Shown here: positions 2,310 to 63,598 of the stretch, in pieces
Layout: each line of letters begins with the position of its first letter
Position numbering within the stretch: the first letter of the stretch is position 1
From: a phage
Direction: 5' to 3' (one strand)
NCBI GenBank assembly: GCA_032986305.1
Contig: GCA_032986305.1_3672.1
Length of the DNA: 64,000 bases
The notes under the pieces: model-generated
Databases searched by the model: none
What the model was told of the DNA's origin: nothing
The model's input: only the letters and a program-made list of their open reading frames with translations
Position numbers and translations under genes: made by a program

Positions 2310-2730
2310 TGCAAAAGCTTTTGGTGAGACAGCGGTACAAAGAGGCCAGGCGATGGGACTGGCACTACCTTTCGTCTTAAAAGAGCACTTTACAGATTTT
2401 CAACTTATCAAAGGTGATAAGGGAATGCTTATCCTGGAGCATAAGTTGAGTAAGAAACGCTACAAAGTTGTTTTTAATTCTAAAGCCCCAACAAAACTTG
2501 GATTCAGAACTTACAATCTCAACCCATCCTATACTAAGGGTGTTGGAAGGGTAGAACAACAGCATTTCAGTGCTAGAGCTTCTTTAGCCCCTTTGATGCT
2601 AAATTTCTCAGGGGTGGCTTTAGGATACCTTGATAAGAAAAGAGTTCTTCATGTCCGTTTCACAGACTTTGTAACGCTTTTAGCTAACAACGAAGTTGAT
2701 GAAAAGGGACGTGTAAAAACAAACTTCTAA
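2272..2730 (+). CDS. hypothetical protein
   Basis: 152-aa ORF in co-directional operon. Confidence 0.4.
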   Translation: MIKSIDLTKELTDAKAFGETAVQRGQAMGLALPFVLKEHFTDFQLIKGDKGMLILEHKLSKKRYKVVFNSKAPTKLGFRTYNLNPSYTKGVGRVEQQHFSARASLAPLMLNFSGVALGYLDKKRVLHVRFTDFVTLLANNEVDEKGRVKTNF

Positions 2731-2745
2731 TAACGCATAGTATGA

Positions 2746-2949
2746 TTGGAGACCGCAATGACACTAAAGTTAACAATTACAGACAGCTTTTCAGAAAACT
2801 TTATCCCAGAAATGATGGGTAAGATGCGATCATTGCTTGATCAGATTGAGGAAGCTGTTTGGGAAGACGATGCTGTAGTGGCTAACGAGCTAGTAGATAA
2901 GTGTAAAAGTATTATTGATGCAGTTGAAGAATATCACGGAGGTTTTTGA
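2746..2949 (+). CDS. hypothetical protein
   Basis: 67-aa ORF; stop overlaps next start (ATGA). Confidence 0.4.
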   Translation: METAMTLKLTITDSFSENFIPEMMGKMRSLLDQIEEAVWEDDAVVANELVDKCKSIIDAVEEYHGGF

Positions 2950-3563
2950 TGGATATTATTGTTCTTAACGCCCCACCTAGCAGCGGCAAGGATCACATTG
3001 CAGATCTCTTGTTGGAAGCTATTCCTAACTCACACCACCGTGAGGTTAAGGAGATGCTCTTCAGTGTGGCAATTAAGGCAGCTGGTGTAACTCCTCAACT
3101 CTGGAATGCACTTTATGACCGCCACTACAAAGAAGAGCCTTGCCCTTTCTTAATGATAGACGGCAAGCATGTTTCTCCGCGAGAGTGGATGATCCATTGT
3201 AGTGAAAATCTGATTAAACCTATCTTTGGTGAAGATGCTTTCGGTAAGGCCGCAGTCACATCCTTGAAGAAAGATTTCCCTAAAGGTAAAGGGGTTGTTG
3301 TTTACTCCGATGGTGGATTCAAAGAGGAGCTGGCATGCCTTAGTGAGTACGCATACAGCACAGGTGGAGATCTGTTGTTGTTCCGTATTCACCGTGTCGG
3401 ATATGACTGGGGAAATGATTCCAGAACCTATCTAAGCCTGGAAAAGAACGGAATAAAAGGGATTGAGTTCGATGTTGTAAATCCTGAAGGTGCACCTTGG
3501 GAATGTGCATCGGAGATTGTGTGCAAGTATATTGATGCTAAAGAGGCCCAAGAAGAATGTTAA
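2949..3563 (+). CDS. deoxynucleoside monophosphate kinase-like protein
   Basis: N-terminal P-loop-like NAPPSSGKDHIAD resembling phage dNMP kinases (T4 gp1 type); SD GGAGG upstream. Confidence 0.5.
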   Translation: MDIIVLNAPPSSGKDHIADLLLEAIPNSHHREVKEMLFSVAIKAAGVTPQLWNALYDRHYKEEPCPFLMIDGKHVSPREWMIHCSENLIKPIFGEDAFGKAAVTSLKKDFPKGKGVVVYSDGGFKEELACLSEYAYSTGGDLLLFRIHRVGYDWGNDSRTYLSLEKNGIKGIEFDVVNPEGAPWECASEIVCKYIDAKEAQEEC

Positions 3564-4150
3564 TCGGAATTGATGTAGATTTGACACTGGTAGATTCAGG
3601 AACAGCATGGTGGGAGTGGTTGGAGCGTTTGTATGGTCCAGCCAGTAAGACAGTCGTTAAACCTTCTAATGGGCTGATGTATTACGATCTGTCAAAGTAT
3701 TGGCCTGATCGCCCCAAAGAAAACATCATAGGACCTTTTGATTTCTGGAGTGATCCGTTCCTCTACGACTTTCTTAAGCCTGAAGAGGGGGCTATTGAGG
3801 TTATGAAAGATTTGGTGGCTCGCGGTCACAAGCTCGCATTTATCTCGGTATGCAAGAAAGGTCACCTTGCATCTAAATCAAGGTTCTTAAAGCGCTGGAC
3901 CAGTGATTTTATGGATCTGGATGATCACACCCAGGGTCACGGCTTCTACGCCACACATTTCAAAGGTAATGTGGCTGTAGATGTTATAATTGATGACAGG
4001 CATGAATACCTGAACCAATTCGCTTCACGACCTGAAGTTATTAAAATCCTAAAAGACACGCCTTATGAGCAATTCGAAGAGTTAAAGGTCAGTGTTGACT
4101 ATACCGCTAATAGCTGGTATAAAATAGGAAAGTTTTTAGAAGGTATTTGA
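3557..4150 (+). CDS. HAD-superfamily phosphatase, 5'-deoxynucleotidase-like
   Basis: N-terminal HAD motif I IGIDVDLTL (DxDxT); context with nucleotide metabolism genes. Confidence 0.45.
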   Translation: MLIGIDVDLTLVDSGTAWWEWLERLYGPASKTVVKPSNGLMYYDLSKYWPDRPKENIIGPFDFWSDPFLYDFLKPEEGAIEVMKDLVARGHKLAFISVCKKGHLASKSRFLKRWTSDFMDLDDHTQGHGFYATHFKGNVAVDVIIDDRHEYLNQFASRPEVIKILKDTPYEQFEELKVSVDYTANSWYKIGKFLEGI

Positions 4151-27959: not shown

Positions 27960-28265
27960 ATGGCTAAATCTAAAGTTGAACTGTTCACCTCTCTTCCTTC
28001 TGACACTGCAGAGCGTGATCGCCTTCGCAAGACAATCGAAGAACTGGTTGAACTCCAACTTCAGATTAAAGATCTGAAAGATGCCATTAAGGATATCATT
28101 CTCGTTGAGAAGCAGGATCATCTGTATTCTCCTAAATTCATCAAATCTCTGGTGGCTACCGAGTTCGATATTCGCTATGAGGCTGAAAAACGTCGAGCTA
28201 AAATCGAAGAAGAGGTTGAGCACATGTCTGAGGCAGACATTCTGTTCAAACGCTCTGTAGAATAA
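27960..28265 (+). CDS. hypothetical protein
   Basis: SD AAGGAGA. Confidence 0.45.
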   Translation: MAKSKVELFTSLPSDTAERDRLRKTIEELVELQLQIKDLKDAIKDIILVEKQDHLYSPKFIKSLVATEFDIRYEAEKRRAKIEEEVEHMSEADILFKRSVE

Positions 28266-28271
28266 TGACAA

Positions 28272-28298
28272 AGAGGGGCTTTGACCCCTCTTTTTACT
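28272..28298 (+). terminator. rho-independent terminator
   Basis: AGAGGGG-ctttga-CCCCTCT followed by TTTTTACT. Confidence 0.6.
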
Positions 28299-28318
28299 AT
28301 CTATGAAGGAGATTTGAG

Positions 28319-28645
28319 ATGGGTATACCGGTCACTGTAAAAGAATTGAATGAACGTGATGCAGGTGGTCTATGGCCTGCACGAAAAATACGCTGCGTCT
28401 ACATGAAAGAGAACCTTGAACATCTTGATCAACAGATCAAGGTCGGTGATATTTTCGAGGTCTTCTATTCCAATCGTCGCAACTGGGAAACCATTCAGCC
28501 TTCTGGTTTTGTTCTTGCCAAACTTGACACTGGAGAAGTGATTATTCCAGGGTTGGATATTGTCTTCGAAATTATCCAGGAGTGGGATCCGGATAAGATT
28601 AGATACGAAGAGTTATTCGGTAAAGGTATTATCAAACCTGTGTGA
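28319..28645 (+). CDS. hypothetical protein
   Basis: SD GAAGGAGA. Confidence 0.45.
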   Translation: MGIPVTVKELNERDAGGLWPARKIRCVYMKENLEHLDQQIKVGDIFEVFYSNRRNWETIQPSGFVLAKLDTGEVIIPGLDIVFEIIQEWDPDKIRYEELFGKGIIKPV

Positions 28646-28653
28646 GGTGGATT

Positions 28654-28953
28654 ATGTCTACAAAGGCGGCTAAATACTCTTACATGCCATCAACCTCTGC
28701 AGAGGTAGACTTTAGTTTTGATGTGTTTCCACTGTTCGAGGTGGTTCTGGCATACCCAACAATACTATCTACCCCTGAATCACTTGTGCCTGTTAAGTTG
28801 CAGAACGCTATGCATTCTATGCATTACAACAATAAATGTAGGCACAGATGGTGTCAGGACGAGGAAAAGGATCTGGACAGTTTGAGAGATTTTGACAATC
28901 ACCTTTTGACACCTTTCAGCTACTCCAACCTTGATAAGCCCTCATGGATATAG
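28654..28953 (+). CDS. hypothetical protein
   Basis: SD GAGGTGG before ATG 28654. Confidence 0.4.
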   Translation: MSTKAAKYSYMPSTSAEVDFSFDVFPLFEVVLAYPTILSTPESLVPVKLQNAMHSMHYNNKCRHRWCQDEEKDLDSLRDFDNHLLTPFSYSNLDKPSWI

Positions 28954-28978
28954 CAAAATATCAAATTTAAGACACCTA

Positions 28979-29009
28979 GGACGCTCTGTGGCGTCCTTTT
29001 CTTTATTTA
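28979..29009 (+). terminator. rho-independent terminator
   Basis: AGGACGC-tctgtg-GCGTCCT followed by TTTTCTTTATTT. Confidence 0.6.
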
Positions 29010-29165
29010 GTGCACGATTGCATACCTTGGACAGATAATCTCATTACAGAGCGTTTAAGAGCTTCCTGCAAACAACTCCATATTTCGAGCGTAGCGAGAA
29101 CGCACGTCCGTTTTGACCAAAATCACCATACGCTCGGATTTTAACCAAACCCTCGCGGCGTTTAT

Positions 29166-29194
29166 GTTGACACATTACCGCTCTCGTGATAGTA
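29166..29194 (+). promoter_or_regulatory. sigma70-type promoter TTGACA-17-TAGTAT
   Basis: Consensus -35 with 17-bp spacer. Confidence 0.45.
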
Positions 29195-29227
29195 TCCACA
29201 CATAGTTTGTAGAATATGGAATACACA

Positions 29228-29320
29228 ATGAAAACATTGTCCGAAGTTTTGGTAGTGATCCTGATGATCATTACGTCCATAGCAGCTGTTGCCGGAATAC
29301 TCACGGGTGGAACATGATCA
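29228..29320 (+). CDS. small hydrophobic peptide (30 aa)
   Basis: Downstream of promoter; TM-like sequence. Confidence 0.3.
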
Positions 29321-29526
29321 ACACACATGTATCTGAAGAGACATCCAAAGGGGTGACCATCTGTCACTTGGCTGAGCCAGTGCAAGAGGAAAACTTCGAT
29401 TCTGAAGATTCTCCATCTTCGCTACAGGTAGATCCTGAGGCTGATGACCTGACGTGGGAGGACATCGTAGATATCTGGTTCTCTATTATGCCTGAGCACG
29501 AAGAGTTCAGGGGTGGTAGACTATGA
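29314..29526 (+). CDS. small acidic protein
   Basis: ATGA overlap with preceding peptide. Confidence 0.35.
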   Translation: MINTHVSEETSKGVTICHLAEPVQEENFDSEDSPSSLQVDPEADDLTWEDIVDIWFSIMPEHEEFRGGRL

Positions 29527-29565
29527 AGCACCGAGCCCACACAGGTTCCTCATGCTAAAGCATGG

Positions 29566-30754
29566 CCTGAAGAGGCAAACGTGCATAATTCCTGTGCATT
29601 GGAACGTATGAAACCCTGTTCACACTCTCATTTCCAGAGGAGATTTCATGAAGATAGAAATATTTGGTGGAGCTGACAACACTCGTGGCCTGATTTACCT
29701 TGAATTCGATGAATCATACCTGCCAGAGGTGTTAAATATAAACTCTGTTGCTGAGGCTTTGGGAGTAAACCCTAAAGAACTCCACTCTTGTGCTGAGATC
29801 GATGGTTGGGAAGAGACCATGAACATTGATTTCAGTGAAGTAGAGGATGAACCGCTGGACTGACACACAATTAGCTGCCCGGCTAAAGTGCTGGAAGCAC
29901 CTATAACACATCTTTCAACTAAATTTCCCACCACCACAATCACTTACCTCCCACACATGACTGTTTGCTTGTTTAGTGAGCAGTCATGCCTTGACATTCT
30001 TGCCTATCCTGATAAAATTAAGTTCTTCTCTTTTCTTTTACCGAGTAATTCGGGTTTTCTGTTCTCTTCGGTTTGAAGAGGTATGGAGATACACCTGAGT
30101 GAACAGGGTGAACAACCGAACCATTGGCTATGGCATTAGCATGGCGAAGCGGACGGGTGACGAAAGAGGGGCCGGAGGACACCAGTCACTGCCATATGAT
30201 ATACGGGTGATAACCTGAAGAGTCTGAATAAGTGTTTAAGTACCAGTCAGAGGAAAAGGTGAATGGTAGCCGAAGGGGGAGGGGGGTTTCTTGTATCTTT
30301 AATTTGTATATTATGTATACACTTGTAAACCAATCTCATCTGAATCTGTTTACTACACAAAGCTGATAGGGACAAATATTACCTATTAAACTTGAATTAT
30401 TTATAGAAAATACCACAACACAACTTAAGTCTTTGATTTTACACACAAATCCTGCAGATATTCACCCTCCATATTTAACATACTTGTAACATATTCCATA
30501 CTCTACCTACCTGATCAATTTACCCACCAACATCCTCCATATTTTCCCTGTCTGTACCACCCCTGCCCCGCCGGGAGTCCCGTCATATCTGGCTTTCCAG
30601 CAAATATCACACCCACAAATATCATTGCCTGAAGAGGATTTCATCTCATAATACATGCCTTGCCTGAAGAGCGCTTCATACACCACGTAAATTTTTTAAT
30701 TGACCCCCTCCCCGCCGCCGGAGAGGTTGGCTTTTCCCACACAGACCTGAAGAG
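29566..30754. repeat. five dispersed copies of 9-mer CCTGAAGAG
   Basis: Exact copies at 29566, 30214, 30628, 30663, 30746 within non-coding DNA. Confidence 0.6.
29648..29863 (+). CDS. small acidic protein
   Basis: SD GAGGAGA; last plus-strand gene before noncoding region. Confidence 0.4.
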   Translation: MKIEIFGGADNTRGLIYLEFDESYLPEVLNINSVAEALGVNPKELHSCAEIDGWEETMNIDFSEVEDEPLD

Positions 30755-31279
30755 TCAGCCAGAAATATCTGAATGGACCCAATTCTGCCCTGTTATGAGC
30801 CGTAGCTACTGGAGTGCTGCCAGGCGGACGAAATGGGAATACTTCTCATTCTTATAACAATTCTCAAATATCAAGGCAGTGAGTCAAATTAATAGGCGAG
30901 GCCGTTCACACAGTGGCACAACATTTGCAACCTATCTTGTGGGGGTGAATGAGAATACCTATCATTGTGAGAATAGTTATCATTACGGGCAATTTAACAT
31001 AATACCCATTATGCGCACCACTGGCGATACATACAGGGATTGATAACATGAGTTACTGTTTACGCATATAACAATTATATTTCTTACTATTTGTGTGGGA
31101 TATAGTTAGCAGCCAATAGATTAGATATTGACCTGTAGACTTCCAACCGTCTAGACGTCTAAACGCCCACACAGCAAGGGTTATACATACACTTCTGAAT
31201 GTAAACAGGGCCGCAAAAATGCTACCATACCAGTTTGTAAATTTTTCATGCAGCACTTGACAAAGAGGAGAAAAACTTG

Positions 31280-31440
31280 TCTGACACTTTAGACACAATA
31301 GTGACATACTATGACACCTTTGACACTTTTGCATACCTGATTGTTTGCATGTCTAATAGTTTACATGGATAACTGTTCACATACTTATCATTTACATGAT
31401 TGACTGTTTACACAAATATGATAAGCCATGACATTCGTTT
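31280..31440. repeat. iteron-like direct repeat arrays (TGACAC(T)TT x3; GTTTRCAY x7 at about 16-bp period)
   Basis: Read directly: tttgcat, gtttgcat, gtttacat, gttcacat, atttacat, gtttacac, gtttgcat in series. Confidence 0.55.
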
Positions 31441-31500
31441 GCATGAAAACAATTAACAAGATAACAATTGACAAGCTAACAGCCAACAAGCTGACAATTA
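31441..31500. repeat. four tandem 15-bp repeats (consensus NTAACAATTRACAAG)
   Basis: aaaacaattaacaag / ataacaattgacaag / ctaacagccaacaag / ctgacaattaacagg. Confidence 0.55.
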
Positions 31501-31517
31501 ACAGGTTAATAATATAT

Positions 31518-31687
31518 GACATAATATAAAAGCAGGGCAACTATTAGCAGATCTATAGTTGCCTTGCTTGTTATGTCATGATTAACTAAATACAAGGCAA
31601 CTATGATCTGATTAATAGTTTGCAGACAAACTATCACGGGGGTGATTGTTACTGCTTTTATATTATGTCGCGACTCCGTCGCGACAT
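31518..31687. repeat. nested inverted repeats (18-bp IR GACATAATATAAAAGCAG, inner palindromes, GTCGCGAC x2)
   Basis: 18-bp perfect inverted repeat at 31518-31535 and 31654-31671; GGCAACTAT-n-ATAGTTGCC; ATAGTTTG-caga-CAAACTAT. Confidence 0.55.
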
Positions 31688-32307
31688 GTCATTCGTTTGC
31701 ATAGTTGCCTTATTGTTACGGATAAAATAATTGTATTGTTAATTATTTCTTATCTTTCTCTTAGTCATCTAATGATTCCAGTCAGTATAGTAATGTACAG
31801 TAAACATTAGACGACTAAATATTTCTCTGATTATAGTAACCTATCGTGACAATTTCGGACTGTTTACGAAAAATGTTGACACCTGGGCAGGTTTATGTTA
31901 TGCAGTTTGTACGAATAATTATTTTATACAGGTATTGACTATTCCGTTATTCTGTGGTTGGAATAAATACTTTGCAGGCTATAGAATGATGTTCGTACGT
32001 GAATTCTGAGATCTGTCGGCTATAGTTACACCCGATTTTTCACGTAGGACACGCTTTTTGGTTTGTGTAAGTGTATGACTTATAAGGGTTTTTAATTGTT
32101 GACAGTATGCTGAAAATGTGCATCAGGTTAAATTTTGTGCAATAGCTGCATTACGTGCGTTTTTGGAAGGAAAAACGTGTAAAAATGACCCTGCTACCAC
32201 AAGATGAAAGATTATGCAATAGTTATTTTATATGTATATTTGTACAGTGTGCGGGATTAATGGCTCGTCAATTATTCCACTTGCCAGGTAGGGCCGTTTA
32301 TGGTAGG

Positions 32308-53356: not shown

Positions 53357-55435
53357 TTAAAAAGGCGTTTCATCATCCTCAAAACCAGGGACAGGGTCAG
53401 AGGACGGATCATCGTACTGGAGGTCTTCCTGCGTGTCAACAGGCTTAACAGTAGGAGTTACAACCTTATCAGCCACAACCTTGCCCATAGGTGTTTCTAC
53501 AACTGCATGCTCCTGATCCTCAAACATAGCCTGAGGTCTCCAAACAACCTCCCCACCTTCTCCATCTGTAAACATTTGCATTTCTTTGTCCCAGTACCAA
53601 TTACTGGCATCATGGAACTTACCTGTATGTGGGTCCATAACCAAAGTGTCTGCAATACCCAATGTTTTTGCTGGGCGGTTTTTAAGACCTACTAAACGGA
53701 CACGCCCACGAGAACGATCCACCATTTCTTCGGCCTCAACACCTATGACTACCCAACTCAACTGTTCAAGCCCAGCCGATCCTCGCAAATTCTCTTTTCG
53801 CACAGGATACCAGAAAGGTAATGGGTTACCATCCTTGTCCTTAGGAGGCACAATCTCTGTACGTTTGAGGTGAGCGATCACCAAGATAAACACGTTAAAC
53901 TGCTTACAAAACGCAGCCAGCTGAGTCATAGCCATGTCCAGTTCTTTTCGCTCATCTTTAACATTAAGCCCTGAAATTACCATAGACAGGTGATCCAGCA
54001 CAATATAGCGACAATGATACAGGCAGACCATTTGCTTAAGCTTGGTAATCAACTCGTCCACTGGAATAGACCCGAAATGTTTGAACACTTTGATTTTTCC
54101 AGCTTTTGCCCATGATTGGTGAATCTCTGCGTGTTCTTGATCAGTTAAAAACTGGCTAGGATCTTCAACAAACTCTTTAACATCAAACCCTAGCTGGTTT
54201 GCATACAAGGAGTTAATTGCTTCCTCTGGGTCCTCCTCAAGATGGATCATGCATAGACGATCATCCTCTTCATAGTCATCGGCCTTCGGGCATGTCGGGT
54301 CCATCAAGTATCTTGCAATACAATGTTCCAGTTTTTTAGCTACAGTTGTTTTACCGCCCCCTGATGGCCCTGTAAGCATTACGAGTGTCCCTTTGTGCAA
54401 GCCTTTTAGCATTTTTTGCAGTTTTGGAAACTCTGCGCTGATATCTACCCCGTTGGAAGTCTTTTTCCGCAAAGATTCGATAGAGAAGTCTTCTAAATCC
54501 GACACAGCATCCGGCACATACTTAACAGGATGCCGGAACATGTTTACAATATCTTCCAGCTTTTTAGCCTTCAGCATGTCACGGATATCTTTTACACCAT
54601 CAGGGTCGTTTACCTCGCCAGGATATTCCACGTGGTAAACGTTGTCAGCCATCAAAAATGCTGCGATATTATGTGTGGCTTCAACACCTTTGATAACGTG
54701 TTTTTGCTTCTCTACCTCGTTAGCTGCATCGTTGTCCATTGCAAGGACCACTGTTCCGTAGCTACGGATAAATTTCTCATTGTTTGCAAAAGTGTCTACT
54801 GCGTTTGCACATCCACAGTTAATTCCAACAAAAGGCAGGCAGGGTTTTCCTGCCAGATCACCCCCGTTGATAACTGCATCGATCCCGTCCTGAACCTCTT
54901 TAGCCCACTGTTTCACCTTTGCCGGGGCTTTAGCGTTGGTGAGAATCCCTTTTACTTGTATCTGATATGCAGCCTGCCATGCTGCAATAACATCACCTTC
55001 CCCCTCACAAACGTTAATCTGCTTACGGTTGTTGGAAGATGCACACAGCTTTTGACCAAACATCTGGGAGTTAGCCTTTACGATGCCTACTACAGACCAG
55101 TGTCCTTTTTGCTCTTTCGGCTTAGACCAATCACGCTTTTTGAAACCGGACAGATTCCCGTATCGGTCGTAATATGGGAAATATGTTGCAGTAACTGTCA
55201 CACCGTCTTCTTGGGATAATGCTGATCGCACACCAAAATATTGTGCAGCCATCAGACCGATATTCTGTTGTGGAACAGGGACAATTTTAGTATTTTCTAA
55301 AACAGTCTCTACAGTTTCAACCTCTTTTTCATCACGATAGTCTCGTTTCATACTGCCCCCACTTTTGTATCTTGTTGCAACCGGGTTAGGTTCTCCATAG
55401 CGGCTATATGCAGAGGATATAAACTTATTCCCCAT
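53357..55435 (-). CDS. primase-helicase (TOPRIM primase plus DnaB-like helicase, T7 gp4-like)
   Basis: TOPRIM CEGEGD and AMDNDAAN; Walker A LTGPSGGGKTT; C-terminus ...FEDDETPF; SD GAGGAG before ATG 55435. Confidence 0.8.
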   Translation of the reverse strand: MGNKFISSAYSRYGEPNPVATRYKSGGSMKRDYRDEKEVETVETVLENTKIVPVPQQNIGLMAAQYFGVRSALSQEDGVTVTATYFPYYDRYGNLSGFKKRDWSKPKEQKGHWSVVGIVKANSQMFGQKLCASSNNRKQINVCEGEGDVIAAWQAAYQIQVKGILTNAKAPAKVKQWAKEVQDGIDAVINGGDLAGKPCLPFVGINCGCANAVDTFANNEKFIRSYGTVVLAMDNDAANEVEKQKHVIKGVEATHNIAAFLMADNVYHVEYPGEVNDPDGVKDIRDMLKAKKLEDIVNMFRHPVKYVPDAVSDLEDFSIESLRKKTSNGVDISAEFPKLQKMLKGLHKGTLVMLTGPSGGGKTTVAKKLEHCIARYLMDPTCPKADDYEEDDRLCMIHLEEDPEEAINSLYANQLGFDVKEFVEDPSQFLTDQEHAEIHQSWAKAGKIKVFKHFGSIPVDELITKLKQMVCLYHCRYIVLDHLSMVISGLNVKDERKELDMAMTQLAAFCKQFNVFILVIAHLKRTEIVPPKDKDGNPLPFWYPVRKENLRGSAGLEQLSWVVIGVEAEEMVDRSRGRVRLVGLKNRPAKTLGIADTLVMDPHTGKFHDASNWYWDKEMQMFTDGEGGEVVWRPQAMFEDQEHAVVETPMGKVVADKVVTPTVKPVDTQEDLQYDDPSSDPVPGFEDDETPF

Positions 55436-56096
55436 CTTTAAACTCCTCAATCTCTTTCATCACTCTATCTCTTACAGCTTTTGCTTCTTCTAAAGTATTG
55501 TAAGTGCCATAGCTCTTTCTCTTTTTGCCGCTTTGCACTCTAACTCTCCACCTTCCAGAGCTCGGCACATAGAACACCCCTGTTACACCGCTAGTGTTTC
55601 TAACATCCAAATCTTGCGGGACGAATTTTCCCTTCTCCCATAACTTTCTGCATGCAATTGCATCTTCTTTTGTCTTAAAACACCCTAAGTATATGTCTCC
55701 AACAGATGCAATCCATCTTTTTATACCTCTAGGGTAGCGTACACCTCGACACCCTGAGGTATTGTTAATGCTCAGTTTGTCACTGTAGATCATGTCTCGT
55801 GCATTATCGCCCTGTGTACCTAGGACTAAGTTCTCTACCCTATCATCGCCTGCTATGTCGTTCTTGTGCCGCACAACAAGTCCTTCTGGTATCTCCCCGT
55901 AATGCATCTCCCAAACTATTCTATGCCTACGAACACTCCCAACACCTGACACATATATCACTCTATAGCCATTTTTATCTGTACCTGTGGCCTCCTCACC
56001 TGCGTAATGTATAACCCTGCCCCTTCCGGCTTTTGCAGTGTACGCCCAGAACAGTTTGCCGTCACTGTAGGTGAAATACTTGCTCCAGTCAACCAT
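55425..56096 (-). CDS. HNH homing endonuclease with two AP2 DNA-binding domains (free-standing)
   Basis: HNH_3 motif HRIVWEMHYGEIP...RHKN...DDRVENL; AP2-like SGCRGVRY... and SGVTGVFY... repeats. Confidence 0.75.
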   Translation of the reverse strand: MVDWSKYFTYSDGKLFWAYTAKAGRGRVIHYAGEEATGTDKNGYRVIYVSGVGSVRRHRIVWEMHYGEIPEGLVVRHKNDIAGDDRVENLVLGTQGDNARDMIYSDKLSINNTSGCRGVRYPRGIKRWIASVGDIYLGCFKTKEDAIACRKLWEKGKFVPQDLDVRNTSGVTGVFYVPSSGRWRVRVQSGKKRKSYGTYNTLEEAKAVRDRVMKEIEEFKDGE

Positions 56097-56850
56097 TGGC
56101 CCTTCTCCTTACTACAGGCTCGTTTGCTAAGAATACAGCTTTTGCCCAACCACGTGGTGTGAGGCTTCGAATCATCTTTGTTCTTGCACTCTTTCCACCC
56201 AGCTTGGCGTGTTGCATGGAATACCCGCTAACCGCGTCAACTATTTGCGGGACAGGTTTTGTGGCCGGGATTATAAATCCATTACCTATCCAGCCGCAAG
56301 TTATTTTTGGATAGGCATCGCGTGGAGCTATAAATTCAGGAAACCAAGGGTTTACATCATCCTCCGGTAAATACCCGCCATAGTCAGAAGGATGAAAACG
56401 GTAATCAGGTTTGCGCCACAGTGTGGACATAACACCCACAGGATTTTCTACATGCCACGGGCAATCGTAAATCTCTCCCAGCTCTTCAGCAACCCGAGCA
56501 TCCTTTACAGCATTAATTTGGATCATAGGGTCCTTATCCAGCTTTTTCTTAAAATGTGCAGCACCTGATACCGCTAAATGCGTGCACGGAGGAAATGCAA
56601 GAATAAAGTCTGGAGCTGGGTACATGCAAAAAGTTTCCTGAGGGAACCATGGGTCAATCCAATAATCCACATAGTGAATGTTGGGATGATCGGTTATCAC
56701 CTCTGCATAACTGCCGTGGTCAGCACCTTCTGCGTTAAAGCACAGGCACAGATATCCAGCTTTTGCCCAGTCAATGACTGCACCGCCAGATCCGTCAAAT
56801 AGACTCCACACAACACCTTTGTGGTAGTGTTCTTTATAGATAAATTTCAA
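56089..56850 (-). CDS. putative DNA methyltransferase (cytosine-5-like motifs); start probably TTG 56850
   Basis: Motif I-like SLFDGSGG, FPPC, ENPVG in correct order; track start at 56880 lies inside terminator hairpin. Confidence 0.4.
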   Translation of the reverse strand: MKFIYKEHYHKGVVWSLFDGSGGAVIDWAKAGYLCLCFNAEGADHGSYAEVITDHPNIHYVDYWIDPWFPQETFCMYPAPDFILAFPPCTHLAVSGAAHFKKKLDKDPMIQINAVKDARVAEELGEIYDCPWHVENPVGVMSTLWRKPDYRFHPSDYGGYLPEDDVNPWFPEFIAPRDAYPKITCGWIGNGFIIPATKPVPQIVDAVSGYSMQHAKLGGKSARTKMIRSLTPRGWAKAVFLANEPVVRRRANG

Positions 56851-56861
56851 TTTGCTGTCTC

Positions 56862-56895
56862 CTAATGCAAAAAGCCCCACCCTTTCGGGCAGGGC
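56862..56895 (-). terminator. rho-independent terminator (second copy of 22-bp hairpin)
   Basis: Identical GCCCCACCCTTTCGGGCAGGGC to 45803-45824. Confidence 0.55.
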
Positions 56896-57795: not shown

Positions 57796-58097
57796 CAGAA
57801 ACCTCCCACTTCTTCAGCAAATGCAGCTGCTGTCGTCGCTGCATCCAGATAGGACTCTAGTTCACGGGCTGCACGTTTGTAAATTGAGTGGCGAATATCG
57901 TTTGGCAGTTGGTGGAAGTCAACCTCTTCACCGTTGCGGTAAACATGCACATCAGTGATCTGTCTAAATCCGTAATAGTCAACATCAGAATCACGGCACT
58001 CCGGGTCTGGCAACTGGACAACTGCCTGAGCTTCTACAGTGAACATATCGTCAAGTTCGAAATCGATTTCAAAAGTGTATGGTTTATAACGTTTCAT
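57795..58097 (-). CDS. hypothetical protein
   Basis: 100 aa. Confidence 0.4.
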   Translation of the reverse strand: MKRYKPYTFEIDFELDDMFTVEAQAVVQLPDPECRDSDVDYYGFRQITDVHVYRNGEEVDFHQLPNDIRHSIYKRAARELESYLDAATTAAAFAEEVGGF

Positions 58098-58157
58098 CGT
58101 TTAGGGCTTCCTTAGTTTTTGTGGGGAGGAGTGCCTCCCCTTTAGACTCACATCTTA

Positions 58158-58499
58158 CTACTGAAGGTCTTCAGAGTCAAGCTCAAAAAGAATCAAACTG
58201 TGCATGCCTGCAGAGAGATCAACACACCCTGCAACAATAAGGGTCTGATAGTAAGGTTCAGCACCCTCGATGTCTTCGTTAAAATCTACAACAAGGTAGT
58301 CACCTTTGTTAAAGGTGTATTTGTCCGATGTAAACGCAAAACCTGCCCAGTCCCCTACTGCAGGATCTTTATCAGTCACCTTTGTCAGCAGTAGATCTTT
58401 TTCACGAGATCTTTTAGTAAAATCGTGAATCACAACATCCTTCTCTTCCGGAGTTGGATTGCCACACACGTAGTTAACTATATTTCTCCACAAACTCAT
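58158..58499 (-). CDS. hypothetical protein
   Basis: 113 aa. Confidence 0.4.
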   Translation of the reverse strand: MSLWRNIVNYVCGNPTPEEKDVVIHDFTKRSREKDLLLTKVTDKDPAVGDWAGFAFTSDKYTFNKGDYLVVDFNEDIEGAEPYYQTLIVAGCVDLSAGMHSLILFELDSEDLQ

Positions 58500-59866
58500 A
58501 CGTCCCCCTCTTCTGCTCTGGTTTCAAAATCTTTCCTGACAATCTTGTCTAAGTCAGGGAATGTTGTATTGTAAAACTCTACGACTCGCGGGTCAACAAT
58601 AATGTCAACTTCTCTTAGTGGACGCAACAAGTTTATTCCTTGTATTGTCTTAACTCGACTCAAAGCAACATACGTCATCCCAGGAGAGAAAGCTCCGTTC
58701 TTTCCAAGGTCCAGGTTGTAACAATCTAGCGTAAGTCCTTGACTTTTATGAGATGTTACGGCGTACCCAGATTTCAGAGGGAGTTGCTTGTATGATCCAA
58801 TCACTACCCTCTCTATAAACTTCTCCATCTTCCTTTCTGCAATGTTGTATCTTTGAGATGGCTTATACTCGTTATTCTCCCACAACCTTTGCTCTATGTC
58901 AACCTGTGTTCCATCTTCAAGCTCCACCACCACCGCCTTGTTCTTAAATTTAACAATCGTGGCACGTGTTCCGTTAACATAATAAGGTACTTTGTGCGTC
59001 GGGTCAACATCGTTGGCGGTTATCATAACCTTCATGCCAATTTTCAACTTCATCTCCTGCTCAACTGGCAGGGTGGAGGGAAACTTACCTTTCATTTCCC
59101 CAGTGTATACCTTCTCTGGGGCGTTGATGGCATCATAGAACCTTCTGTTCACTTCCTCTGCTTGTTTATTGGTGGCGCAAATTGTGAGAGCGTCTGTTGG
59201 TACACCACCTTTGTAACAGCGAGCATTAAGTTCTGCTACAACCTCTTTTATGCGACGACCCTCACGAACACAGTTGAGCATTGTGGCAAATCGAATAGAC
59301 TCCTGTCGGAACTGATCTACTAGGGCTATGTTGTGGAGGTCAAGCTCTTTCCAAGATTCGGTATAGCAACACAGGTCCGTAGGGTAGAAGTTGAAGTAGG
59401 CTTCCTTCTCCATAGAAGAGACAACAGGAGGTGCCTGGTAAAAGTCGCCAAACAATATGACCTGTATGCCTCCGAAAGGTTTGTCATTTTTTCGAAGGAA
59501 GCGAAGTTTCCTATCCATCTCTATAAACTTATCAGCACGGATCATAGAGATTTCATCGATAATTAGGATGGTAAATGCCTTGCTTTTCAAAGGCTTTGCT
59601 GTTTTTGCCCTTATTGCGGTCCAGTCTGACTCCATGCTCACACCTGCTGCAAGATCGAAGGTTCGGTGTGCTGTTGCTCCATTAACGTTTAAAGCGGCTA
59701 CCCCTGTCGGGGCAACCGTTATGCAAGAGTCTCCATACATTGACTGGATCATGTTGATGAGGTACGTCTTCCCACAACCTGCGGGTCCTGAAACGAAGAC
59801 ATTCTCACCGCTCATGATTGCAACGAGGGCAGCATCTGTGCCTACATCATACTGCCCTTTTTCCAT
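58496..59866 (-). CDS. Dda/Pif1/RecD-family SF1 DNA helicase
   Basis: Walker A VSGPAGCGKTY, Walker B IIDEISMI, C-terminal motif YAVTSHKSQGLTLD. Confidence 0.8.
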   Translation of the reverse strand: MEKGQYDVGTDAALVAIMSGENVFVSGPAGCGKTYLINMIQSMYGDSCITVAPTGVAALNVNGATAHRTFDLAAGVSMESDWTAIRAKTAKPLKSKAFTILIIDEISMIRADKFIEMDRKLRFLRKNDKPFGGIQVILFGDFYQAPPVVSSMEKEAYFNFYPTDLCCYTESWKELDLHNIALVDQFRQESIRFATMLNCVREGRRIKEVVAELNARCYKGGVPTDALTICATNKQAEEVNRRFYDAINAPEKVYTGEMKGKFPSTLPVEQEMKLKIGMKVMITANDVDPTHKVPYYVNGTRATIVKFKNKAVVVELEDGTQVDIEQRLWENNEYKPSQRYNIAERKMEKFIERVVIGSYKQLPLKSGYAVTSHKSQGLTLDCYNLDLGKNGAFSPGMTYVALSRVKTIQGINLLRPLREVDIIVDPRVVEFYNTTFPDLDKIVRKDFETRAEEGDV

Positions 59867-61071
59867 TACGCCTCCTCGTAAAGAATGTCGATAGTGTTAC
59901 CGTCTCGGTCAACAACGTATTCAATCGGGTCTCCGTCCTTGCGTGCTTCCGGAGCTACCACAATCTCATAGCGGCATGCACGGCACTTAGCGCTATTGTG
60001 TTGGTATGGCACACTAACCACATCTGCAGGGTCAACCATGACAGTCATTACAGTGCCGTAGCTCTTTGCATACTCCTTGCTGGCGCAATGTAAGCCATAG
60101 GAGCACGCAGCTTCAGGATCATCCTCTACAAAGTTGCGAGGCATGGATACAAAAGCACCCTGGTACTGTGGAACTTTACCACTGTGCCAATCAACCCACT
60201 TGCTGCCGTTAAACTGAACCCCTTTGTAGCAAATGATTCGACCATCTTCTGCAATCTGGATATCGTTGGCCTGCATAAAATCGTAGAGCATGTTTACAGA
60301 TTTTGCAGAAGGATTGCGCAGCAGGCGAACGAGGAATTTCACATAGCGGTCATCCAGTGTTCCGTCTGCATAATCTTTCTCAATTTTCTTTGCAATGGTG
60401 GATCGCATCTCTACACCGTAGTAGTAGAGCTTACCATCTTTCATGATCAGGTTGTCTGCAAGTGTGGTGAACTCATTCTTGCGTTCCAGCCAGACAAGGA
60501 TTTCACCAATTGCCTCATCATATTCCTGAACAGAGATATGGTCGAAGACTTTCTGGTAAACTTCCTCACTTTCGCTGCGGCGAATCTCAAAAATGCCTTC
60601 GTTGCAGGTGATCTGGAGGAGTTCCCCGCAAATAACTACCAAAGGCTCGATGCTTCGAGTCTGTTGCTGAGACACACTGCTCACCACTTCCAGCACCGGA
60701 TCTTTGACTTCTACTAAAGGTTCTTCTGACTTGATTGCTACCCCAGTGAACCCCACACCGTGAACAACACACAGTGGGTATACCACGCCCCAACGTTTAA
60801 CGGAACCTTCGCCTAAGTCTAAGATCATGGCGTACTTACCATTATCTTCCAATCCATAGCGGAATAAACGGGCCTCTTCGCGGGTTTCAAAATCCTCACG
60901 GGTGTAGCAGACGCTGTCACGGTCAGGATCGAACAACTCTGGGGCACCCACTGCCAGTGTCCAGGTTGTGTCACCTTTCTCAATAGCACATGTGAAACCC
61001 TTCTTCTCAAGTTCTGCACGGCGGTCTCGTGCTTCTTTACGAGTTTTGAAATGTTCGTAGATGAAAATCAT
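59866..61071 (-). CDS. hypothetical protein with N-terminal tandem repeat
   Basis: Two approx 45-aa repeats (F.TR.EAR..R..LE..G) at N-terminus; 401 aa. Confidence 0.45.
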   Translation of the reverse strand: MIFIYEHFKTRKEARDRRAELEKKGFTCAIEKGDTTWTLAVGAPELFDPDRDSVCYTREDFETREEARLFRYGLEDNGKYAMILDLGEGSVKRWGVVYPLCVVHGVGFTGVAIKSEEPLVEVKDPVLEVVSSVSQQQTRSIEPLVVICGELLQITCNEGIFEIRRSESEEVYQKVFDHISVQEYDEAIGEILVWLERKNEFTTLADNLIMKDGKLYYYGVEMRSTIAKKIEKDYADGTLDDRYVKFLVRLLRNPSAKSVNMLYDFMQANDIQIAEDGRIICYKGVQFNGSKWVDWHSGKVPQYQGAFVSMPRNFVEDDPEAACSYGLHCASKEYAKSYGTVMTVMVDPADVVSVPYQHNSAKCRACRYEIVVAPEARKDGDPIEYVVDRDGNTIDILYEEA

Positions 61072-61081
61072 AGCTGTCTCC

Positions 61082-63064
61082 TTATTTGGTGTTATTCTTT
61101 GTGTCGATCAGTTCACGGTATTCAATCATAGCAGGAGTGTCCCAATATTTCAAGCCCACATGCTTCAAAAGTGGATATTTCTTTTCCAATCTTGCAATAT
61201 AGGCCTTCCCGCACTTGACTCGGTTGGCGATTAAGATTTTGGCACGATGATTTAGCTCACTGTGCTTCCACGCGGTATTACCTTCCCACTTGTGGAAATG
61301 TGGCCGATAATTTCCAAAATCTTGCATGGGGATAATTTTCCCTAATTGTCTATACAGGCTGTCATATGAAGTTTCATTTGCTGCGCGAGTCAGTAAGAAT
61401 TTCCAGGCGTCCTCTTTCAACAAATGTTCCACATTTTTCTCTGTAACATACTGGCAATCAGGATCAGTCCAAAGCAGACGGGATTCTGATACCAGATACA
61501 AGTCCTCCCCTTCAGGAATCTGGAGTGCCGCACGCACACGGTCATAATTTTGCTGGTAGATGTTACTCAGCTGTCCCAGCCAACAACTTCCACGTTGGAT
61601 ATCACCCTCATAAGGAATGCAGTGCTTAATCTTCTTGAACTCTGCCTTAGTAATACGCTCACGACGGAAGTAACCATCCTTCTCAAGTTTTTTAACCCAA
61701 TAACCTGGCTCATAACGAGTTTTGGTTTCACCTTTCTTCGCAGGTCGGCGTGGAAGCTCTGATAACAATTTGACTGTATCTGCAAAGAACGGATGGTGTG
61801 CCACCTCTTTAAACTCTTTCACCAGATCCATGTTCCGGCAATAGAAAACGTTGCGTCCGGTGATCTCGCTTAAGTAGTTACACTTATTTCGGTTATATTT
61901 GCCGTCTCCGTCGTTAAATACTAAGTAGACCCCCCGTAAGAACTCCGACTTTCCGTAGCAGGCGTAACCTATGCGGCCTTTATTTAAGCCTCCAGCGAAG
62001 ATCTCACAATCTCCCAAACTTCCTAGTCCTGTCTCTTCCCATCGATCCCACATAAAATTCTTACCGAAGATGTGCCCAAACACTCCACTGTTCTTCATCA
62101 TCTCACGTGCTTCTGAGGATGTTTTTGCTGTCTCCAATTCCGCAACAACTTCTGCCCCACGAAGACGGATACCCTCTTTGACAAAAGCCTCTAGGCGATC
62201 CTGGAATCCACCGTCGTCATGGCCCTCTATGGTCCATTCACGCCCAGGGTTAATATTGCAATCCCCAATAGGAATTTCCACGCAGATCGCAGGGTAATCG
62301 GTCAATGTCTCCAGGAACTTAGAGCGGTAAGGTTGGTGACCCATCACAACACGGCTCTCATCAGAACTGGTATAACCTTTCAGGATGGTCATTTTCCAGC
62401 CATCCTTCTCGTAATGATACTGTGCCTCAACCTTGTCACCTTCTAACATCTTACTGGTCATGGGATCGGTGACGGTGAACGGAAACTTCGCATAGCGTAG
62501 GCATGATGCAATAGCAGTGCGATATTTCAGAACATGCTCTTTCTCAACATGGAACTGAACTTTTACCCCGTTGTGCTCTTCAGTCTTCCGCTCGCGGATC
62601 TTGGTAACGTTTGGGATACCCTGATCCAAGAACAACAGATATGTGCTTTCAACACCGTTGTGCACACTGATCACATCGAAAGTGTCCACCATGCTGAACG
62701 GGGCCTTTGAACCTACACCTTTATTACCTACCAGAGCGTTGCTGTTGCGCTTGGTTGACTCCCCGAGGTTCATGAAAGTGTTGCGGACCATCTCTTCTGA
62801 CATGCCTAATCCAACGTCCTGCACAAAGAAGTATGGTTCAAGGTCTGTAGGGGAGTGAATAATGATCGGTACATCACCCCGTCCAGACTCAACATGGGAG
62901 TCCACAGCATTGAAGATTGGTTCACGGCAGCTTGCCAGCACCTTATCTTCGTAAATCCCTTTAATGATCAGCCCAAAAGTCTCTTTGTTCAGAGAAATTG
63001 AGCCCCGGGTAACCTCCATATTCCCGGTTAGTACTGCTTTAGTTTCATTACTGTTTACGATCAT
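61082..63064 (-). CDS. GHKL-superfamily ATPase domain protein
   Basis: Bergerat-fold motifs in order: E-PIF-NAVD (N box), DVGLG (G1), GNKGVG (G2). Confidence 0.5.
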   Translation of the reverse strand: MIVNSNETKAVLTGNMEVTRGSISLNKETFGLIIKGIYEDKVLASCREPIFNAVDSHVESGRGDVPIIIHSPTDLEPYFFVQDVGLGMSEEMVRNTFMNLGESTKRNSNALVGNKGVGSKAPFSMVDTFDVISVHNGVESTYLLFLDQGIPNVTKIRERKTEEHNGVKVQFHVEKEHVLKYRTAIASCLRYAKFPFTVTDPMTSKMLEGDKVEAQYHYEKDGWKMTILKGYTSSDESRVVMGHQPYRSKFLETLTDYPAICVEIPIGDCNINPGREWTIEGHDDGGFQDRLEAFVKEGIRLRGAEVVAELETAKTSSEAREMMKNSGVFGHIFGKNFMWDRWEETGLGSLGDCEIFAGGLNKGRIGYACYGKSEFLRGVYLVFNDGDGKYNRNKCNYLSEITGRNVFYCRNMDLVKEFKEVAHHPFFADTVKLLSELPRRPAKKGETKTRYEPGYWVKKLEKDGYFRRERITKAEFKKIKHCIPYEGDIQRGSCWLGQLSNIYQQNYDRVRAALQIPEGEDLYLVSESRLLWTDPDCQYVTEKNVEHLLKEDAWKFLLTRAANETSYDSLYRQLGKIIPMQDFGNYRPHFHKWEGNTAWKHSELNHRAKILIANRVKCGKAYIARLEKKYPLLKHVGLKYWDTPAMIEYRELIDTKNNTK

Positions 63065-63561
63065 TTATTGCGCTCCTTGTAGTAGATATGACTCCCGAAT
63101 TGAGCTGTCCTCTGCATCTTTTTTGCCCATTTCGGTCGTACTTTGGTTGTATGGTAGTGTGTTGCTCCACCTGTTATGTCCATAGCCATGTATGCAACAT
63201 GGTTGTTATTATAGACCTTTAGAAGCATCTTTGCAAGACTTTTAGCGTGATCCCATGAATCTTTTTCTGTCACCTTAAAAGTTTTGCCGTGGTTTGTCCA
63301 CGAAAACTGGTTAGGTTGGTAGACAATCTTTCTTATAGTGTCTGGGTATTTGGGGTGAGCTTTCCTGTTTAGTGTGGCAAACCCGGATGCCAGCATACCC
63401 ATCGTGCCATCCCCTCTAGCCTCCCTGTAGATATTGCATGCCAGAATGTTTTCCTTAGTATCTGAGGGCTTGCAAGTATGATATACTTTTTGTTTTGGTG
63501 CTGCAACAACAGGCAGCGATAAAAATGCGCTCAAAATAATAGCAAAGATCTTAATTTTCAC
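63061..63561 (-). CDS. secreted cell-wall hydrolase (SleB/Hydrolase_2-like)
   Basis: N-terminal signal peptide; motif NIYREARGDG...QFSWT; GTG start after GGAG. Confidence 0.55.
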   Translation of the reverse strand: MKIKIFAIILSAFLSLPVVAAPKQKVYHTCKPSDTKENILACNIYREARGDGTMGMLASGFATLNRKAHPKYPDTIRKIVYQPNQFSWTNHGKTFKVTEKDSWDHAKSLAKMLLKVYNNNHVAYMAMDITGGATHYHTTKVRPKWAKKMQRTAQFGSHIYYKERNK

Positions 63562-63569
63562 AATAACTC

Positions 63570-63598
63570 CAAATAGAAAATCCCCGCCGAAGCGGGGG
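63570..63598 (-). terminator. rho-independent terminator (minus strand)
   Basis: CCCCGC-cgaa-GCGGGG with U-run on minus strand. Confidence 0.5.

Follow-up and report, generated by a model that had tools for sequence, protein, structure and literature searches.

Gene identities at the locus

The window analysed here, a 64,000-nt stretch of phage DNA (contig GCA_032986305.1_3672.1 of GenBank assembly GCA_032986305.1), carries at 61082-63064 an open reading frame (ORF) that is identified from its sequence as the rIIA gene of an rV5-like Escherichia coli phage (Vequintavirus). The ORF lies on the minus strand, encodes 660 residues from an ATG start and has an AAGGAG ribosome-binding site ahead of it; its partner rIIB, of 401 residues, is found directly downstream on the same strand, as in the rIIA family (Table 1). 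An earlier note, made from the sequence alone, had described a 660-residue protein with three Bergerat motifs, next to a 401-residue protein with an N-terminal tandem repeat and a Dda-like helicase. All of these observations were borne out, the name rIIA/rIIB was missed, and the interpretation then offered for the ATPase is partly supported.

The family assignment is carried by profile and pairwise comparisons. Residues 1-657 match positions 1-723 of the 725-position phrog_612 profile 'RIIA' (E 1.1e-123), the same profile that is matched by rIIA of phage T4 (NC_000866; E 9e-250), while T4 rIIB matches phrog_609. Compared directly with T4 rIIA, the window protein is 28% identical over residues 1-198, both proteins aligning from residue 1 (BLASTP, E 9e-22), and a profile of 31 rIIA homologues extends the alignment to residues 1-316, across the PGRE/PSRE motif of the two proteins (hhalign, 99.95% probability, E 1e-37). 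Both marks of an rIIA, a full-length profile match and a match to the T4 protein, were thus found. Between the C-terminal halves of the window and T4 proteins, BLASTP and hhalign detect no homology; indirect support for homology of this half comes from the end-to-end phrog_612 match and from full-length Foldseek alignments at low template-modelling (TM) scores. No NCBIfam family passes its cut-off for rIIA or rIIB, and a sequence search of the PDB returned nothing significant for either protein, TRAP1 being reached for rIIA only at E 0.19.

Table 1. Features of the rIIA-rIIB locus and its surroundings in the window.
Feature	Position	Strand	Size or basis
HNH_3 + AP2 ORF, homing-endonuclease-like	55425-56096	-	223 aa; HNH_3 E 5e-17, AP2 E 3e-9
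PIF1/Dda-like helicase	58496..59866	-	Pfam PIF1 E 1.5e-32; phrog_325 E 1.5e-111
rIIB gene, partner of rIIA	59866..61071	-	401 aa; phrog_609, T4 rIIB BLASTP, PF26926 homologues
rIIB residues 143-401: conserved rIIB core	59866..60645	-	
rIIB residues 1-102: two tandem beta-alpha-beta-beta repeats (SPOR/RNP-like)	60766..61071	-	
rIIA gene, whole ORF	61082..63064	-	660 aa; phrog_612, T4 rIIA BLASTP, GenBank annotation
rIIA residues 317-660 and stop: C-terminal alpha/beta region, lineage-specific	61082..62116	-	
rIIA residues 201-316: transducer-like second domain with invariant R275-E276	62117..62464	-	
rIIA residues 1-200: GHKL (Bergerat) ATP-binding domain, N-terminal strap	62465..63064	-	
SleB/CwlJ-type cell-wall hydrolase with signal peptide	63061..63561	-	Pfam Hydrolase_2 E 1.9e-19
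Terminator-like GC hairpin and T-run, just upstream of the hydrolase gene	63582..63597	-	pattern scan

The ATPase module of rIIA

The three Bergerat motifs read E48-xxx-N52-A-x-D55, D83-x-G-x-G87 and G113-xx-G-x-G118, and the Pfam model HATPase_c_3 covers residues 50-147 above its cut-off (E 1.8e-8). Among homologues down to about 20% identity, the invariant positions are Y38, R47, E48, N52, A53, D55, P72, D83, G85, G87, S103-T104-K105, G113, G116, G118, G166, Y246, R275 and E276. Because this catalytic set is intact, rIIA is likely to be an active ATPase.

An AlphaFold2 (AF2) model was built from an alignment of 31 sequences and has a mean predicted local distance difference test score (pLDDT) of 81.9. 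Its low-confidence parts are residues 1-15 and residues 102-115, the second of which corresponds to the ATP lid, where flexibility is expected. In the second domain, R275 is a candidate gamma-phosphate sensor, proposed by analogy with the switch Lys/Arg of GyrB, MutL and Hsp90. Proteins of the rIIA family have been described as beginning at residue 1 with a GHKL ATPase domain and as varying in their C-terminal region (PMC7824862), and the window protein is built in the same way, its conserved N-terminal and variable C-terminal parts being confirmed by the spans of its phmmer matches. Foldseek was run against predicted viral structures (BFVD): among the top 50 matches, many of which are unnamed, every named entry is RIIA or a GHKL-type phage protein and other families are absent. 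KVP40 comes first (6.6e-32), followed by 44RR2.8t, Marfa, ST11 and others. The alignments cover 600-800 columns with TM scores of only 0.4-0.54, in line with expectation for multi-domain models. Profile search and structure prediction, which were among the checks proposed in the earlier note, point to the rIIA family and a GHKL-plus-transducer fold and do not indicate a conventional large subunit of topoisomerase II.

Structural matches of rIIA to cellular GHKL families are confined to the N-terminal ATPase-transducer module, and the identities suggested by that module were weighed one by one. Hsp90/TRAP1, ParE/GyrB, MORC2/3, MutL, SMCHD1 and Topo VI-B show marginal similarity to it (10-15% identity). 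Unlike these proteins, rIIA has rIIB as its partner, and it lacks TOPRIM, the Hsp90 middle and C-terminal domains, the MutL C-terminal domain, CW/coiled-coil parts and an SMC hinge. A Pfam scan with the Toprim, HisKA, HSP90 and MutL C-terminal models gave no match, in agreement with the earlier failure to see TOPRIM, kinase or MutL C-terminal signatures by eye. The earlier note had put forward a divergent topoisomerase subunit. Such an ATPase subunit of a phage type II enzyme (GyrB/ParE/T4 gp39-like) would share the ATPase-transducer module; as an identity for rIIA it is nevertheless extremely improbable and is rejected: the structural matches end with that module, no TOPRIM domain follows it, the full-length profile match is to rIIA, and no GyrA/ParC/gp52-type partner gene was found among the neighbours at 53-64 kb of the window. 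T4 itself has rIIA plus a separate topoisomerase.

It is also very improbable that rIIA has nothing to do with counter-defence and is instead a factor of the Hsp90, MORC or MutL type, acting as a chaperone, a DNA-compacting clamp or a repair protein. The resemblance to Hsp90 and MORC proposed earlier holds at the level of the fold only, with NCBIfam HSP90 scoring 18 bits against a cut-off of 455 bits and Pfam HSP90, MutL_C, DNA_mis_repair and MORC giving no matches on rIIA. The C-terminal half of rIIA is unlike those of the Hsp90, MORC and MutL families, and the knockdown phenotype published for phage EdH4 is reported to be conditional on RexAB (PMC11879866). Hsp90 membership is further rejected by the lack of the Hsp90 middle and C-terminal domains. 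For MutL/MLH, neither Pfam nor NCBIfam gave a DNA_mis_repair or MutL C-terminal match, and the structural match is restricted to the N-terminal module. Neither HisKA/DHp nor the single-domain CA fold of histidine kinases and anti-sigma-factor-type GHKL proteins was found. Likeness to Hsp90, MutL and histidine kinases is one of fold only, and the same probably applies to MORC. As for components of known defence systems, PADLOC gave nothing above noise level (E 0.003-0.008, 13 bits).

rIIA contains two 6-nt homopolymer runs, T6 at 61688 and C6 at 61930, whereas rIIB contains none. A recent preprint describes a run of six A in T4 rIIA as a hypermutable contingency locus (bioRxiv 2025.10.21.683753).

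rIIB and the organization of the gene pair

The 401-residue neighbour matches phrog_609 'RIIB' (E 1.3e-61) and is 37% identical to T4 rIIB over residues 172-371 (BLASTP, E 4e-39); in this alignment, a Met of T4 rIIB stands opposite C363 of the window protein. Its homologues bear the precomputed Pfam assignment PF26926 'Phage_T4_rIIB', and its C-terminal core contains the CSxGLH and (D/H)P(A/R)DVVS(V/I)P motifs of the family. The N-terminal repeat noted earlier is supported by the alignment of residues 5-25 with residues 58-78, which scores 44 (shuffled sequences 20.4 +/- 4.2, 1/2000 as high). In the AF2 model (pLDDT 73), beta-alpha-beta-beta units are predicted at residues 2-43 and 54-102, followed by a disordered linker at 101-142 and then the core; the Pfam SPOR model gives E 0.0014 and fails its cut-off. 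Among 28 rIIB homologues the core is rich in invariant residues, including C323-x4-H328 and C363-x2-C366, and this C-x4-H ... C-x2-C pattern suggests a metal site or a catalytic dyad. No fold relative of the core and no solved structural relative of rIIB were found. A 498-residue protein on a 3.3-kb contig in ENA (P0036) joins N-terminal TPR repeats to a C-terminal part of rIIB that is 99% identical to that of the window; it may be a genuine fusion or the product of chimeric assembly.

rIIA and rIIB are an adjacent, translationally coupled pair, separated by 10 nt. At the upstream end, the stop codon of the hydrolase gene overlaps the rIIA start (ATGA), and at the downstream end the rIIB stop overlaps the start of the helicase (TAATG). 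The hydrolase has a hydrophobic, signal-like N-terminal segment (MKIKIFAIILSAFLSLPVVAAP). The hairpin just upstream of the hydrolase gene is likely to be the 5' boundary of a hydrolase-rIIA-rIIB-helicase transcription unit, and the EdH4 record annotates a terminator at the matching place. Pairing extends beyond close relatives, as rIIA homologues at 30-34% identity also have a PF26926 gene directly downstream. In one relative at 34% identity (L006), the order Hydrolase_2, rIIA, rIIB, PIF1 helicase and DnaB-type helicase is kept, with one small ORF between hydrolase and rIIA.

Natural RIIA-RIIB fusions of about 1050 residues exist, for example Q56C47 of Escherichia phage RB43 (1049 residues), and lend Rosetta-stone support to joint action of the two proteins. 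The RB43 protein contains the same rIIA N-terminal module and rIIB core that are encoded in the window by two genes 10 nt apart. phrog_609 is built on this fusion layout, with rIIA N-termini matching its positions 19-310 and rIIB its positions 751-1049. For this reason rIIA N-termini also match a profile labelled RIIB, and rIIA can be misannotated as rIIB through PHROG 609.

Relatives and distribution

Many E. coli myoviruses of the rV5-like genus Vequintavirus share 95-96% DNA identity with the locus, and full-length rIIA is present in 117 GenBank phage records. Since most of these annotate the gene, as 'rIIA lysis inhibitor', 'RIIA protector from prophage-induced early lysis' or 'membrane integrity protector', the window pair is ordinary, already known and already annotated; in most of the records the genes beside it are annotated as well, as a cell-wall hydrolase, rIIB and a helicase. 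More widely, phmmer against 1.84 billion representative proteins (50%-identity clusters) retrieved 14,033 clusters at E<=1e-3, 11,492 at E<=1e-10 and 357 at E<=1e-30. These are mostly 650-800 residues long and are matched over residues 1 to about 200-340, with only about 10 full-length matches. According to one review, rIIB occurs in about 5% of database phages (PMC13434031), and large myoviruses and N4-like phages commonly carry the rIIAB locus (PMC8594841). The view in the earlier note that phage GHKL ATPases outside topoisomerase II are uncommon is wrong in the light of these counts.

In EdH4 (Vequintavirus murica; QBO61345/QBO61344), rIIA is 98.3% (649/660) and rIIB 97.5% (391/401) identical to the window proteins, with equal lengths and gene order. 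The 11 substitutions in rIIA and 10 in rIIB leave the GHKL motifs untouched. T4 rIIA (NP_049616) resembles the window protein in matching phrog_612 end to end and in having the 316-residue GHKL-plus-transducer module from residue 1, with common motifs and (S/G)RE. The core of T4 rIIB (NP_049889) is likewise shared, and in both phages rIIA is followed by rIIB on one strand. The two loci differ in that the N-terminal domains of rIIA are just 28% identical, the C-terminal 340 residues cannot be aligned by BLASTP or hhalign, and no alignment is obtained between the double SPOR-like repeat of the window rIIB and the N-terminal part of T4 rIIB. The neighbours differ as well, being a cell-wall hydrolase and a PIF1 helicase in the window and topoisomerase gene 60 and denB in T4.

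Sixteen unannotated GenBank records of the MG0656xx series, labelled 'Campylobacter phage' with host C. jejuni (e.g. MG065662, A142), are about 95-96% identical to the locus, which suggests mislabelled submissions or a contaminating phage.

Function in counter-defence

Benzer relied on rII when he mapped the fine structure of the gene, and Crick and colleagues when they established the triplet code. Data on their role are available from knockdown of RIIA or RIIB by CRISPRi-ART in five phages, EdH4 among them (Adler et al. 2025; PMC11879866). The knockdowns, EdH4 included, are reported to have had no effect on E. coli without Rex and to have reduced the efficiency of plating on E. coli expressing lambda RexAB, the action of which is membrane depolarisation. 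In T4, insertions in rIIA and rIIB were depleted only when RexAB was present (bioRxiv 2025.11.20.689424). Having been reported for an orthologue of 98.3% identity, a RexAB-conditional role may be expected of the window rIIA as well. Altogether, the window pair is with high probability the Vequintavirus rIIA/rIIB, a two-protein counter-defence module against RexAB-type abortive infection (lambda-like prophages) that is dispensable otherwise. A defence or counter-defence component was among the three options of the earlier note, and it is the correct one.

Some points weigh against this assignment. Recent papers still term rII 'poorly understood' (PMC8594841; PMC7824862; PMC11879866), and the 'lysis inhibitor' label of PHROGs and GenBank may be historical and misleading. 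The defence that the pair naturally counters in the hosts of this phage may not be lambda RexAB. That rIIA is active as an ATPase and dimerises, that it binds rIIB and that either protein contacts RexA or RexB is inferred. Any membrane association of the two proteins would have to be peripheral, as no transmembrane segment is predicted in either. It is conceivable, if unlikely, that the Vequintavirus-type pair is a functionally retargeted variant, the conserved ATP-driven GHKL clamp of which acts on some ligand or defence system distinct from lambda RexAB. Retargeting could come from the C-terminal half of rIIA, which is lineage-specific, and from the double SPOR/RNP-like repeat with which rIIB begins, and R275 would again act as gamma-phosphate sensor.

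For counter-defence against RexAB, a mechanism can be proposed by analogy with better-known GHKL proteins. The N-terminal domains of rIIA would dimerise on ATP binding, as in Hsp90, MutL, MORC and type II topoisomerases, with E48 as putative general base, N52 binding Mg2+ and D83 binding adenine. The G113-G118 lid would then close, and sensing of the gamma-phosphate would probably fall to the second domain through its invariant R275. rIIB would be the bound partner of rIIA and, with the variable C-terminal half of rIIA, would provide partner and target specificity. The ATP-cycled complex could sequester the infection signal that activates RexA, or keep RexA/RexB inactive, and membrane depolarisation and growth arrest would be averted.

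The classical view of a 'membrane integrity protector' places rIIA and rIIB at the membrane instead, as a peripheral complex that stabilises the energised inner membrane, or plugs or counteracts the RexB channel. Annotation in these terms is found in the record of T4 and in those of the BASEL phages, the RB43 fusion is named 'membrane-associated', and RexAB itself acts by depolarising the membrane (PMC11879866). On its own, RIIB of T6 is toxic to E. coli, and its expression sets off a CARD-gasdermin (membrane-pore) defence of Lysobacter (PMC10312443), and a secreted cell-wall hydrolase is encoded upstream of the pair in the same apparent operon. However, neither rIIA nor rIIB has a predicted transmembrane segment (maximum Kyte-Doolittle hydropathy over 19 residues, KD19, 0.83 and 1.69) or signal peptide, no membrane-binding element was identified in them, and modules of the GHKL-plus-transducer type usually belong to soluble clamps that work on DNA or on client proteins. 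Action at the membrane is thus possible and rather doubtful. Cytoplasmic masking of the infection signal or of RexA is preferred over peripheral action on RexB, because the module is of the soluble clamp type and both proteins lack a transmembrane segment.

The locus itself is of little import, being an orthologue of a textbook pair with more than 100 sequenced relatives, one of which, 98% identical, has been tested functionally. Interest belongs to the rII family, for which a biochemical mechanism and a solved structure are still lacking. As the pair models with good confidence, it might provide a tractable entry point to the 70-year-old rII question, and the AF2 models (GHKL-plus-transducer fold, invariant R275-E276) offer point mutants with which the need for an ATPase cycle in anti-Rex activity could be addressed.

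Flanking genes and other features of the window

The genes at 53-64 kb of the window, besides rIIA, encode a primase/helicase, an HNH endonuclease, a methylase-like ORF, small ORFs, the PIF1 helicase, rIIB and the hydrolase. The HNH-AP2 ORF has the DnaB-type primase/helicase gene (53357-55450) on one side and the methylase-like ORF (56089-56880) on the other. It looks like a mobile insertion, because these two flanking genes abut directly in phage isim. In isim and EdH4, an 'adenine methyltransferase' gene of about 1.3 kb lies between ORFs of 100 and 113 residues. This gene is absent at 58097-58158 of the window phage, where there is only a 60-nt gap. The flanking accessory genes of the window therefore differ from those of EdH4 by the presence of the HNH-AP2 endonuclease and the lack of the adenine methyltransferase. 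In L006, an IS605 OrfB/TnpB-like gene (OrfB_IS605, Cas12f1-like_TNB) is found at 2321-3580, just upstream of the hydrolase-rIIA-rIIB-helicase block.

A tRNA scan of the whole window returned none. Only small ORFs (<140 residues) are present at 21-37 kb, and they are sparse at 29.9-32.3 kb. Coding strand and guanine-cytosine (GC) skew change sign at about 28000-32000, with a plus-strand block before about 28 kb and a minus-strand block after about 31 kb, and the GC minimum of the window (0.388) falls at 30-32 kb.
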